A stretch of DNA of 64,000 bases from an uncultured Candidatus Midichloriaceae bacterium. GTDB taxonomy: Bacteria; Pseudomonadota; Alphaproteobacteria; Rickettsiales; Midichloriaceae. Location of the stretch: NCBI GenBank assembly GCA_964529685.1, contig CAZGZC010000004.1, forward strand, positions 15,399-79,398. The letters run 5' to 3'. Shown piece by piece: positions 18,001-24,000 of this stretch (the stretch's first letter is position 1; every line of letters starts with the position of its first letter). A program made the position numbers.

Positions 18001-21000
18001 AGCCTCTTGAAATGACAGCAGAAAAAGTTCGCTCAGCAGTTGCTTCTATTGAGTATATTACAGGGAAAATCACCCTTGATGATGTCCTAGATAAGATCTT
18101 TTCTAGTTTTTGTATTGGTAAGTGAGTTATGATAAAAATTTAAAAAACTAATTCAGAATGACTTTAGACTCCTGCTGAAATTACTATGATCGTCTCATAT
18201 GAGACTATAGTAGGATCAAGATATAAATTGGATTTATAAGTTCAAAAATGATAATATAAGACCTATCATGTCATATACTTCTTTTATATAAAATAAATCC
18301 ATAGGATATATCCAGTATTATAATTGGAGTGTTTTAATGAGTTAACTAATAATATTCCAGCTAAAGCAGCATCTTTTGACCGGTATATGGGTAAGATAGA
18401 TTTTTAGGAAAAGGATTTGGTACAACAATATTAACTCAATTTATCCGCGAAATCATCAGCTCTAAGTTTATAGTTGTAGAATATAAGATGACTAATACTG
18501 CTGCAATCAAATGCTATGAGAAAATTGGTTTCAAGAGAATAAAAAATAATAGAATGATATATGAGTAACATTTATGTTACATCTAATAAATTAGATTTTA
18601 GATGAGATACTTGCAAGCTTTTTTAGGAAGTGATAGAAAAGAAGTTATTTAATAACGGATTTTTGGACTTTATCACAAAAAAGTTTATAGATTAAATACA
18701 AAAATTCTATGCTAAAGATATCGGATATAAGGTTATGGGTTGCTCTTGGTTGTAGTGAAGAAGAAAAGGCGTTACCTACCTGTGTTAGTATTGATGTAGA
18801 AGTTACTTTTGACTCTATACCAGCTGCAGTTGTATCAGACAGCTTAAAAGATACTGTTTGTTATGCATCAATTGTGAGCAGTATCAGAGAACTATGTCTC
18901 AAAAAAAGATTCAATTTAATTGAGTACCTTGCAGCTCAAGTCTATAAAGTAGTAGAAGATATAGTACAAGCTAGAAAAATTATAGTAAAGGTAACTAAGA
19001 TGCTGCCGCCAGTTCGAGATGTTCATGGTGGAGTCTCATTCACTTATGTTGAATAGAGAAGACATGACATACGAAGTAATGAAAAGTGGTTGTATAGTGA
19101 TTAATCTACAGATTGCTATAGGTATTATTTAAAGAGTCACTTATTGACACTAAGAATCTCTATCGGTAATTAATAGAAAATATTAATGAACTGCTTTATG
19201 ATTAAAGTTTATATTGGAATTGGTAGTAATCTCGGCAATAGAATAGATAACTTAAGATTAGCCTTAGAGAAACTTAGGATTTTATTTAAAAATCTACAAG
19301 AATCAATAATTATTGAGACTGATGCTATAATCGCAGACGGCATAGATCAAAGCTCGCGACTTCCATATCTTAATATGGTTGTATCTTGTGATACTGATCT
19401 TAGTCCTGAAGAATTATTATTAGAACTTAAATCAATTGAAAAGAGAATAGGCAGGGATGAAATGTATATAAAATGGTCTCCACGCATCATTGATTTAGAT
19501 ATTTTACTTTATGGAGATGAAGTTATACAAACTCCAAACTTAACTGTGCCACATCCAGAGCTAAACAACCGTACATTTTTCCAACATCTACTAGCGCTAC
19601 TTGGGGTTGATGATTTCGGCCTTCAGAATGATTCTTTTATTGGTAGTTTTGTAGCTTCTCCTAGTATAATTGGGATTGTTAATGTTACTAATGATTCTTT
19701 TTCTGATGGCGGAAAGTATAATAAAGCTGACAAAGCTATTGAACATGCTCTTAAGCTAGTAAAAGACGGTGCAAGTATAGTTGATATTGGAGCTCAATCT
19801 ACCAGACCTGGTACTATTATAAAGTCTGCTAATGATGAAATTACTGCTCTCACGCCTGTATTAGGAATGCTGCCTGAGATTGATATAAGCATAGATACTT
19901 TTCGCCATGAAGTTGTAGAGTGGGCTTTGAAAAAACATAACATTTCTTGGGTGAACGATGTCACTAGTTCACTAGAGACTAGAAGTTTAGAAATGATTAG
20001 AGACTATGAGAAAAAGTTGTGTGTCATGCACTCATTAATAGTACCGCCAGATAGTAAAATTATATTACCTATAGATTGTGATCCAATTAAGGAAATTGTG
20101 TTATGGGGAGAGAAGAAGATCGATCAACTATTGAGATTAAAATACAATCTAGACAATATAATTCTTGATCCAGGCATTGGCTTCGGCAAAAATTATCAGC
20201 AGAATATCTCAATTATAAAGAGAGTTGGTGAGTTGAAAAGAACATTAGGAGTGCAAATATTATTAGGACATTCACGTAAGAGCTATATATCAGCGTTTTC
20301 AAAGTCATTAGCACCTGAAAGAGATATTGAAACAATTGCAATCTCAAGTTTAATTGCAAAAGATATTGACTATTTGAGGGTTCATGATGTATCAAGTCAT
20401 ATGAAGACACTAGTTGCTCAACAATCAATTGTAAGTTATGACTATAAGTAAAGCACTAAACGAAAATCTGGATAAATTCAATCTTCTCAAACACCCATTT
20501 TATGTTGCTTGGAATGAAGGTACTCTATCAATTGAGATTTTACAGAAATATGTAACTGAGTATTATCATCACGTTGTGGCATTCCCACACTATGTAAATA
20601 AAATTAGGTTACTCTGCCCAAACCAGGAAGATAAGGATGTTCTAGAAGATAATTTATTAGATGAGTTAGGATTAAAAGATTCTACTTTATCAGATAAAAT
20701 GACATGGGAAGAGGAAAACTGTCAAAACAAGGAAGATAAGGATGTTCTAAAAGATAATTTATTAGATGAGTTAAAATTAAAAGATTTTACTTTATCAGAT
20801 AAAACGACATGGGGAAAGGAAAACCATCCTGAGTTATGGTTAAGGTTTTCAGAAGGAATTGGTGGTACAAGAGACATGAAAGATGAACCAGAACTAGAGT
20901 CAACCAAAAAACTTGTTAATGGATATTTTGATCTTGTTAGGAATGATTATGCGACCGGCTTAGGAGCACTATATGCCTATGAGAGACAAACACCTGCTAT

Positions 21001-24000
21001 TGCTAAATCAAAAGCAAATGGTTTGAAGTGTCACTATAATGTTAATGATGAAGAGACATTAAAATTCTTTACAGTCCACCAAGAGATAGATGAGTGGCAT
21101 AGAGAACAATTGGAATGGTTAATTTCTAAACTCTCTTCTGACGAAAAGAAACGCTTTGAAATTGGTGCTGTAGCTGGTGCAAAACTACTATATGAATTCC
21201 TTGACGGTATGAATGTTATTAATTGTCATTAAAATCAGCTTGAGATATGGCTATTGTTTTAATACTACTTCAAATCTTGATCAAATGATTCTCAATAGTC
21301 AAGTTACATTTTTTGTATAAACTTAAAAAACGTTTTAAAAGTATGAATGAAAGAAAATTAAGAACAAGTGAGTGGTTCAGATCATTACGAGATGAAATTT
21401 GTAATGAGTTTCAAAAAATTGAGGAAGAGAACGGCTCAAAAGCTAAGTTTAAGCAAACTAAATGGGATAGAGTTGATGGTGGTGGTGGCGAAATATCTCT
21501 TATGAGAGGCGAGATTTTTGAGAAAGTTGGAGTGAATATTTCTACTGTATATGGTAGGTTTAACGAGCAATTTGCTAAGGAGATACCTGGTGCAGAAGAA
21601 GATGGTGCCTTTTGGGCAAGTGGTATATCATTAGTTGCTCATATGCAATCTCCTCAAATTCCTGCAGTCCACATGAATACAAGGTATATAGTTACATCTA
21701 AAGATTGGTTTGGGGGTGGTGCTGATCTAACTCCAACTATCCTATATAATGAAGACACTGAGCATTTTCATAGGATTTTAAAAGATGCTTGCGATAAATT
21801 TGATCATGATTATTATCCTAAATATAAAGCTTGGTGTGATGAATATTTCTTCTTAAAACATAGAAATGAACCACGCGGAGTTGGCGGAATATTTTATGAT
21901 TACTTGAATAGTGATGATTGGGAAAAAGATTTTCAGTTTACAAAATCAGTTGGTAATGGCTTTATAGAAGCTTTCATACCTTTAGTGAGGAAAAGAGTAG
22001 TTCAACCTTGGAGTCAAGAAGAGAAAAATAAACAGTTAGTTAAAAGAGGTAGATACGTAGAATTTAATCTGCTATATGATAGAGGTACTAGATTTGGACT
22101 AATGACCGATGGTAATGTAGAAGCAATTTTAATGTCTCTGCCTCCTGAGGTGCAATGGATATAAGAATAAGATGTTAAAAAAATTTTTCGAAGAAGAACA
22201 AAATGAATCGCTTGAGGGTAAAATACTAGTAGCATCACCAAACCTCAAAGATCCCTATTTTAGTCAATCAATAGTTTATATATGCACACATGATGAAGCC
22301 GGTGCAATAGGCATTATAATTAATCAAAAAATAGGTATGATCTCATATTCAGATTTAGTTTTTATAAATGACAAAAATGCTTCTATACCTAAAAATAAGA
22401 AAATTCCTTTAATGTTCGGAGGACCAATAAATACAGATATGTTGATTGCACTAAGCACGAAAGAACAAGATGATGATTCACTAATGAGTTTCTCAATACA
22501 TACGGATATTACAAGTTTTTTAAAACAACAGCAATTAAAAAAATACTCTTCTGAGAAATTCATTCTTGCTAAAGGAGTTGCAGCATGGGATAGTCAACAA
22601 TTAGAAGAAGAAGTAGAATCAAATCATTGGATTATTGTAGAAGCAGATCAAAAGTTGATATTTTCTACTAAAAGACGCAATAAATGGTCTGAGATTATAA
22701 AACAACTTGGTATAGTTGACGCTCTTGGTCTTGTTCAATACTCTGGGAATTGTTAAGAATTTTTACGCAGATCTAAAATAATCTATGCAATTTATTTCTG
22801 TAAAGCTTGAGCTTTCTCTAATCTTTATTATTAGATACTCTTGAAATTAAAAAAATTCTGATTTTTATATTGATCTAGGGTTGTATATATGGTAAAATTT
22901 ATTTTGGATACAAACAAAATAAAGAATATAAAATATGCCTCAAGATGCAAGCAGAATTGTAAAATCTTTTGAAAACATTTTAAATAAAAGAGCAGTTCAA
23001 GATAGAAATAACATCAATTCACAGAACACTCTTGATGAAAAATTAGCAGCTGGTATTGGAATAAAAGAAGGGATAATAGCAGAAATGACTGCAAGCATTA
23101 ATATAATGCGTCAGAAGAAAGAAATCTCTCACGAACACTGGCATAATGCTAAGACATCTCTAAAATTTTATGATAAAAATACTACTGTATTTGCTTGGAA
23201 TCCAAATCCACATGGTTTATTAAGTGAATTAAATGCTATTGACTACTCACAGAATGTTGAAATTATCAGAGTAAAACCACATCAATTTCTAACTCAAATG
23301 CAACCTGCATTTTTAGAAGGGCAAGAGAGAGTGGGGAATTTCTATGCACCAGGCTCTCTTCCTGCTGATTTTAATGATCGCGCTGATAGAAGTGGTATAG
23401 GGATTAAAGGAACAGAAAAAGATCAAACAATTTCAGATAAATCTGTATATATAAGTAAAGTTGTAGCAACCTGTACTGCTCTTAAGTCGACCGCATCTCC
23501 TGCTTCTGATACGTGGAGTGTCGAAAAACAAAACCAGATGAGTCAAGGTGGAGGAATACAGTTTAGAATGTCTAGCGGTGATTATGGCAAAATAGTGAGA
23601 CAAAAGTATGGAGAAGTACAAGCAAGAGAGCATGGTGCAGCAGATAAATCTCTTAAACATGGTTTTTTACAACCCAAAAAGAAGAATTTTCATACCCAGA
23701 CAGCTCAAAAACAAATCAACAAAGTCTATAGCACACCAATTTCTCCCTAAACTGAGAATTTTGCGAAAAATGGTACACTATAAAGTATATGATCTACTTG
23801 ATTTTAGATATACCTGTGATATCCTTGGTATGACATACAACCTTTATAAAGAGTAAAACATATGGCACGTATCGCTGGTGTTAATATACCAAGCAATAAA
23901 AGACTCATCATAGCACTTGCATACATATATGGAATAGGTCCATACAATGCAAAGCAAATATGTGCAAAAACAGCTATAGATGGTAATAAAAAAGTAAAAG

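Follow-up and report, generated by a model that had tools for sequence, protein, structure and literature searches.

A CADD-family p-aminobenzoate synthase gene with a tandemly duplicated helix module in the folate gene string of a Midichloriaceae bacterium

The stretch of DNA analysed here, 64,000 nucleotides in length and called the window below, covers positions 15,399 to 79,398 of contig CAZGZC010000004.1 in assembly GCA_964529685.1, from an uncultured Candidatus Midichloriaceae bacterium. It carries a folate gene string, folB-folKP-CADD (Table 1), whose third gene encodes a p-aminobenzoate (pABA) synthase of the CADD family. Within this gene, a 105-bp in-frame tandem duplication has copied a complete helix bearing a glutamate metal ligand together with the linker that follows it, so that two copies of this ligand motif precede a single copy of the next one. 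The best explanation overall, to which we give a probability of about 0.6, is that the gene encodes an active CADD-type pABA synthase carrying a duplicated helix module. The genome, referred to as G000, is of the Rickettsiales type and comprises 1.03 Mb in 8 contigs (96% complete, 0.01% contamination).

The membership of the gene product in the CADD family of pABA synthases is solid. The protein reached 227.5 bits against NCBIfam TIGR04305 ('CADD family putative folate metabolism protein', cut-off 200), in a match that falls into two stretches with the insert between them, and its best matches in the PDB were 9pj4 and 8va9 ('4-aminobenzoate synthase') as well as 1rcw, the CADD protein CT610 (CtCADD), with E-values from 1e-28 to 1e-54 in profile and sequence searches. 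A first-pass annotation made from the DNA alone had described the gene as collinear with Chlamydia CT610, and this assignment is borne out by the family score and the structural matches. An AlphaFold model, which depends on the alignment of 119 homologues supplied to it, had a predicted local distance difference test score (pLDDT) of 88.5 and a predicted template modelling score (pTM) of 0.83. It displays the seven-helix heme-oxygenase-like bundle, and Foldseek returned the C. trachomatis CADD chains 8vag, 8va9 and 1rcw as the best matches, with target-normalised template modelling (TM) scores of 0.90-0.91. For pABA synthase activity in this enzyme type, as judged by rescue of Escherichia coli pabA, pabB or pabC mutants and by Tyr-to-Gly conversion, there is precedent (PMC4161248, PMC9522330). 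Some databases label homologues of the protein as PqqC, a misnomer for the CADD family; for the protein described here the PqqC identity was rejected, with 28.3 bits against the TIGR02111 cut-off of 240.

The catalytic residues are in place. Residue equivalences were taken from the offset of the HMMER alignment to 1rcw, and conservation was assessed over 119 sequences. All six metal-ligand positions are kept, namely E76 (and again E111), H130, E182, H214, D218 and H221, each invariant or nearly so, and the loss of ligand residues, which the first-pass annotation had named as fatal to its inference, does not apply. The corresponding ligands of CT610 we take to be E81, H88, E142, H174, D178 and H181. 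The sacrificial tyrosine and the amine-donor lysine are present (Table 1), and the essential or relay aromatics Y38 (Tyr43 of CADD), Y42 (Tyr47) and W134 (Trp99 of NePabS, the homologous enzyme of Nitrosomonas europaea) are invariant. A set of three histidines and three carboxylates has been stated for this enzyme type (PMC11965152, PMC13108848), and the roles of the sacrificial Tyr, the amine-donor Lys and the relay aromatics are documented (PMC9522330, PMC11965152). Two aromatic residues adjacent to the metals are known to set the metal preference: Tyr141/Tyr170 of CADD goes with Mn/Fe and Phe148/Phe177 of NePabS with Fe/Fe, while the NePabS variant F148Y, with a Tyr/Phe pair, is cambialistic (PMC11965152). 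The pair here is Tyr181 (20978-20980) and Phe210 (21065-21067), as in nearly all close homologues of the Rickettsiales type. Because this combination matches that of the F148Y variant, an enzyme with little preference between Fe/Fe and Mn/Fe may be expected.

The duplication is real and unique in the assembly. Tandem Repeats Finder (TRF) reported an array at 20620-20824 with a period of 105, 2.0 copies, 92% matches, 0% indels and a score of 354, the only array scoring at least 80 across the window. The codon reading resolves it into two 35-residue units, as the first-pass annotation had proposed, each with its own DNLLDEL motif (E76 and E111) ahead of the single NHPELW (H130). The units are identical at 95 of 105 positions, and the 10 differences, which lie in 9 codons, amount to 8 amino acid changes and one synonymous change. 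The sequence immediately flanking the two units is unrelated and unrepeated. By inspection, the junctions share at most 1 nt of microhomology, and any claim on the mechanism would at most be limited to illegitimate recombination or slippage. No such duplication was seen in the 120 top-scoring homologues out of 876 retrieved from 5.8 billion proteins, in the best 80 of 310 relatives in GTDB species genomes (where the matches all span 195-219 codons), or in the 150 best-matching cluster representatives out of 1.84 billion. Given that only one assembly carries the sequence (its protein cluster has one member, from one contig) and that no relative among those searched shares it, an assembly artefact has to be considered, for example two strain variants placed in tandem, in which case the true protein would have 229 residues, similar to its relatives P0002 and P0003. 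We regard this as very improbable. A simple assembly stutter would not be expected to leave ten differences between the copies; the units are exactly in frame and free of indels, no longer repeat around them could have confused the assembler, and strain variants would not be expected to diverge by 10% over 105 bp and yet have identical flanks. The few contigs and the low contamination of the genome likewise speak against it.

The duplicated unit extends from the loop before the Glu-bearing helix (C-P-N-Q) to the Asn in front of the His, and therefore the module that was copied is the complete Glu-bearing helix plus an expanded linker. Helix 63-76 of the model ends with the Glu and helix 130-140 opens with the His, so that the two ligands sit on two helical segments and not on one rigid helix. 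The duplication had first been placed in the metal-ligand helix; it does affect the Glu/His region, but the insert and the junction lie in the interhelix linker and not inside a continuous helix. The CT610 counterpart had been given as a DNLMDEE motif followed by six residues and the His. Six residues do precede the His, but the order is D-N-L-M-D-E81, then ENGYPN, then H88. In 116 of the 119 close homologues this linker is exactly 6 residues long and follows the pattern E-[QK]-G-[ED]-x-N, with the Gly present in 114 and the Asn in 115 of the 116. The gene described here lacks this short linker, a trait that is typical of the family without formally defining it. Its linker counts 53 residues with the duplication and 18 per single unit, a net gain of 12 per unit over the usual 6; the enlargement had thus been recognised correctly, but its size had been put at about 17 extra residues.

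Long linkers are shared by the two nearest relatives, P0002 (22 residues) and P0003 (21 residues), which form one clade with the gene described here (support of 99 in the Shimodaira-Hasegawa-like approximate likelihood ratio test, SH-aLRT). Among distant cluster representatives the linker ranges from 2 to 11 residues and once reaches 21, in P0121. This more distant CADD homologue (239 residues, 49-51% identity) has the 21-residue Glu-to-His linker VDIPIDQLSTKITEEQYGPKN, which is faintly similar to the insert of the clade (LS.K.T ... [YW]G..N). Given P0121, the expansion of the linker may be older than the clade or recurrent. The two units of the duplication have diverged by 0.10 per site overall, with a synonymous divergence (dS) of 0.06 that rests on one synonymous change, and since this is small beside the dS of 1.26 to P0002, the duplication is much younger than the split from P0002, though not brand new.

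Which copy of the helix is built into the bundle can be read in two ways, both of them possible. Either copy 1 lies in the bundle and is followed by a 53-residue excursion, or a 35-residue excursion comes first and copy 2 lies in the bundle, followed by the native linker of the clade. The alignment-based AlphaFold model places the helix of copy 1 in the bundle (pLDDT about 90) and leaves residues 81-120 as an excursion (pLDDT 49-58). This choice was imposed by the alignment and is not independent, because MAFFT had aligned the helix of every homologue to copy 1. In comparison with P0002 and P0003, derived changes are carried by both copies, K70E and G91E by copy 1 and G113K and S117F by copy 2, and each copy also retains part of the ancestral residues. 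That the fold accommodates extra residues near this helix is suggested by 9pj4, a NePabS-like structure with an insert of about 9 residues at the other, N-terminal end of the Glu-bearing helix. The insert is presumably the disordered loop described for NePabS, which comprises about 10 residues, is absent from CADD and does not prevent activity in vitro (PMC11965152). With this loop at one end and the linker expansion at the other, both ends of the Glu-bearing helix appear by analogy to tolerate extra residues.

The reading of the gene as part of a non-canonical pABA route is supported by the remainder of the genome. In a profile search of G000, neither a chorismate-binding enzyme (PF00425, a family that includes PabB) nor chorismate synthase (PF01264) was found, whereas both had matches in all 14 of 14 control genomes. 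This rules out the chorismate route to pABA and leaves the CADD route as the only one that the genome encodes. The first-pass annotation had proposed this route from the gene order and had named canonical pab genes as evidence that would speak against it; pabB is absent from G000. The folate genes folE and folC are present, and the folKP open reading frame (ORF), of 421 residues, is intact. The predicted string of folB, folKP and CADD is real, including the overlap of 14 nt between folKP and CADD, whose ATG lies 14 nt before the folKP stop. The same order occurs in the nearest relative P0002, on a 160-kb metagenomic contig, and the start codon agrees between the two (MTISKALN versus MIISKELN). 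The same-genus genome G003 has both folKP and CADD, the latter with an ordinary 6-residue linker.

On these grounds we propose that the protein would act as a dimetal single-turnover enzyme which, by homology, would use its site of three histidines and three carboxylates together with O2 to cleave the side chain of its own Tyr22 and aminate it from Lys192, so that each protein molecule would yield one pABA. The translationally coupled upstream FolKP would condense this pABA with the pterin. The linker would have grown from 6 to about 18-22 residues in a small clade consisting of this gene, P0002, P0003 and possibly P0121, and a later 105-bp tandem duplication, confined to this lineage, would have copied the Glu-bearing helix with its linker. 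Given that both ends of this helix-plus-loop module meet loops that appear to tolerate insertions, one copy could occupy the native place in the seven-helix bundle and the other could be carried as an excursion on the surface, while the metal site and both sacrificial residues would remain intact. We consider it rather unlikely that the protein is bistable, with either copy supplying the ligand, or that the spare helix and its charged linker serve gating or docking in metal loading or in the hand-over of pABA to FolKP; if this were true, the gene would be a natural test of topological slack in a dimetal heme-oxygenase-like site.

Several comparisons speak for a functional gene. Against P0002 the ratio of non-synonymous to synonymous divergence (dN/dS) is 0.11 for the whole gene, and CADD, with an identity of 76%, is at least as conserved as folKP (72%) and folB (55%). 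The replacements specific to this lineage avoid conserved columns (mean conservation 0.66, compared with 0.76 overall; p=0.018) and are mostly conservative, and the ORF is open throughout despite the divergence of about 10% between the copies.

Several observations weigh against the proposed reading. The changes between the two units, 9 non-synonymous and 1 synonymous, give a dN/dS of about 2 that is indistinguishable from neutral (p=0.46) and very unlike the gene-wide value (P about 5e-4 by our own arithmetic). In a relative-rate test, the CADD protein described here has 25 unique amino acid changes and that of P0002 has 10 (p=0.017); with a second outgroup the counts are 15 and 4 (p=0.019). 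FolKP is symmetric in the same tests (26 versus 23, and 21 versus 25 with the second outgroup), so the roughly 2.5-fold faster evolution concerns CADD and not folKP. Six of the changes, A39V, A47V, V188I, I193A, E224Q and W252Y, affect residues that are conserved in at least 90% of the family. On the structural side, the placement of copy 1 by AlphaFold follows the position of the MAFFT gap, and a model from the single sequence reached a pLDDT of only 43.5, too low to be informative. In the pathway, canonical dihydrofolate reductase (DHFR, PF00186) was searched for in G000 and not found, in a search that did not include alternative reductases; such a reductase might take over the reduction of dihydrofolate, or the DHFR gene might fall within the 4% of the genome that the assembly lacks. 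Within the genus, G001 has folB and a folKP split over two frames (G001:C11:305996-307218, locus L103), with no CADD within 1.2 kb downstream of it, and G002 (85% complete) has neither folKP nor CADD. Folate synthesis looks to be in the course of being lost within the genus.

The main rival explanation takes these observations as early decay: the duplication would have crippled the enzyme, for example through a misplaced Glu ligand or a less stable bundle, and the gene would be a young pseudogene in waiting, with an ORF not yet broken, in a lineage on its way to abandoning folate synthesis. The neutral divergence of the units, the acceleration restricted to CADD, the changes at near-invariant residues, the condition of the same-genus genomes and the DHFR result would all fit. 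However, all catalytic, sacrificial and relay residues are intact, the replacements still avoid conserved columns, and folB, folKP, folE and folC are intact as well. Moreover, the 795 nt of the gene contain no stop codon or frameshift, whereas a rough estimate for full neutrality over the drift of the copies would predict at least one stop or indel. We therefore consider early decay possible, though on balance doubtful. The neutral divergence of the copies combined with an acceleration seen in CADD only suggests instead that the gene probably still functions, with selection on it relaxed or compensating, and that the enzyme probably tolerates the duplication.

It could also be argued that the lengthened, charged linker has acquired a function of its own and was doubled adaptively; FolKP, or a partner that activates the enzyme or loads its metals, might dock there. 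The expansion is kept in P0002, P0003 and possibly P0121, and the helix core is nearly unchanged between the copies (1 difference in 36 nt, compared with 9 in 69 nt elsewhere in the unit). However, by our own estimate this contrast is not significant, the linkers of P0001, P0002, P0003 and P0121 have little sequence in common, the units evolve neutrally, and the model shows low confidence and no stable structure for the segment. An adaptive origin is accordingly highly improbable in our judgement.

Table 1. Coordinates of the gene, its candidate functional residues and the associated folate genes, numbered from the first letter of the window
Feature	Position	Strand	Basis
CADD-family self-sacrificing p-aminobenzoate synthase gene, 264 residues	20438..21232	+	TIGR04305, PDB matches, AlphaFold/Foldseek
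Repeat unit 1 (C60-N94): helix 63-76 with Glu76, then expanded linker	20615..20719	+	TRF, codon table
Repeat unit 2 (C95-N129): helix 98-111 with Glu111, linker ending WGKEN before His130	20720..20824	+	TRF, codon table
Tyr22 codon, equivalent to sacrificial Tyr27 of CtCADD and Tyr25 of NePabS	20501..20503	+	Alignment to 1rcw; invariant in 119 sequences
Glu76 codon, candidate metal ligand of copy 1 (CT610 Glu81)	20663..20665	+	Aligned to 1rcw residue 81; invariant column
Glu111 codon, candidate metal ligand of copy 2	20768..20770	+	DNLLDE motif again, 35 codons downstream of copy 1
His130 codon (CT610 His88), start of next helix	20825..20827	+	Alignment to 1rcw, model; invariant in 119/119
Glu182 codon (CT610 Glu142); preceding Tyr181 equivalent to CADD Tyr141	20981..20983	+	Alignment to 1rcw
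Lys192 codon, equivalent to amine-donor Lys152 of CADD and Lys159 of NePabS	21011..21013	+	Alignment to 1rcw; invariant in 119 sequences
His214, Asp218, His221 triad (CT610 H174, D178, H181)	21077..21100	+	H214 and D218 invariant; H221 in at least 90%
folB (dihydroneopterin aldolase), first gene of the folate string	18709..19056	+	PF02152, 4.2e-19; TIGR00525, 74.7 bits (cut-off 72.15)
folKP fusion (HPPK, i.e. hydroxymethyldihydropterin pyrophosphokinase, + dihydropteroate synthase), pABA consumer	19186..20451	+	PF01288 and PF00809; TIGR01496, 227.6 bits; TIGR01498, 107 bits
folE (GTP cyclohydrolase I), first step of the pterin branch	48981..49487 (G000:C4:64379-64885)	+	PF01227, 215 bits

Among the known systems, C. 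trachomatis CADD/CT610 (1RCW, 8VA9, 8VAG), a pABA synthase using Fe/Mn, shares with the protein described here the TIGR04305 family, the seven-helix fold and the positions of the three histidines and three carboxylates. Its Tyr27, Lys152 and Tyr43 all have equivalents, and its gene likewise sits in a cluster of folate genes, in an obligate intracellular bacterium without pabABC. It differs in that the identity is about 29%, its linker has 6 residues and not 53, and its metal-adjacent pair is Tyr141/Tyr170 and not Tyr181/Phe210. The best PDB match by sequence is the NePabS-like 9pj4 (E 2e-31). NePabS (NE1434) is likewise a pABA synthase of the self-sacrificing type and has the same Tyr and Lys. 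Relative to CADD, NePabS and 9pj4 carry about 9-10 additional loop residues, with which NePabS is still active in vitro; unlike the insert described here, the loop of 9pj4 lies N-terminal of the Glu-bearing helix and not in the Glu-to-His linker. With its Phe/Phe pair, NePabS prefers Fe/Fe, whereas the pair here is Tyr/Phe.

Other Rickettsiales (Wolbachia, Rickettsia, Tisiphia, Fokinia, Jidaibacter and others) have CADD proteins, annotated as 'CADD family putative folate metabolism protein', with 45-50% identity, the conserved residues in common (the Tyr181/Phe210 pair among them) and linkage to folate genes. In contrast to the present protein, they have 215-224 residues, a linker of exactly 6 residues (E-x-G-x-x-N) and no duplication. 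Within the clade, P0002 (233 residues, 76% identity) and P0003 (230 residues, 70%) share the expanded linker after NLLDE-L, but have a single helix-plus-linker unit and a slower protein evolution.

The linkage of CADD to folate genes was described in 2007 and 2014 (PMC1971073, PMC4161248). The coupling of CADD with folKP in intracellular bacteria that lack pabABC has been known since this period, and the pathway described here adds one more Rickettsiales lineage. The structural novelty is modest: several relatives show that the Glu-His linker can lengthen from 6 to about 20 residues, and in one genome the whole Glu-bearing helix is duplicated in frame while the gene is still open. Taken together, loop expansion and helix duplication amount to a minor structural peculiarity of this lineage, with uncertain consequences. 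If the enzyme is active, constructs with one or two units and the pair E76A versus E111A would probe the assembly of the metal site in heme-oxygenase-like dimetal enzymes, and the same constructs would probe the tolerance of a single-turnover enzyme to insertions. If it is inactive, the gene would capture the first step towards losing folate synthesis, a loss that relatives in the genus have already undergone.

Two further observations concern a homologue and the neighbourhood of the gene. In P0081, a protein of 437 residues labelled as Rotaria magnacalcarata from a rotifer assembly, a CADD domain is fused to PF01996 (a CofE/FolC2-like ligase); the gene probably stems from a bacterial symbiont or contaminant, or else two adjacent genes have been joined. 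Downstream of the CADD gene in the window lie hemF and an AlgH-like gene. An ORF of 271 residues on the forward strand (22935-23750), upstream of rpsM, matches Pfam PF15538 'Bacterial toxin 46' (Ntox46) over residues 91-210, with an E-value of 2.4e-8 and 34.5 bits against a cut-off of 25.

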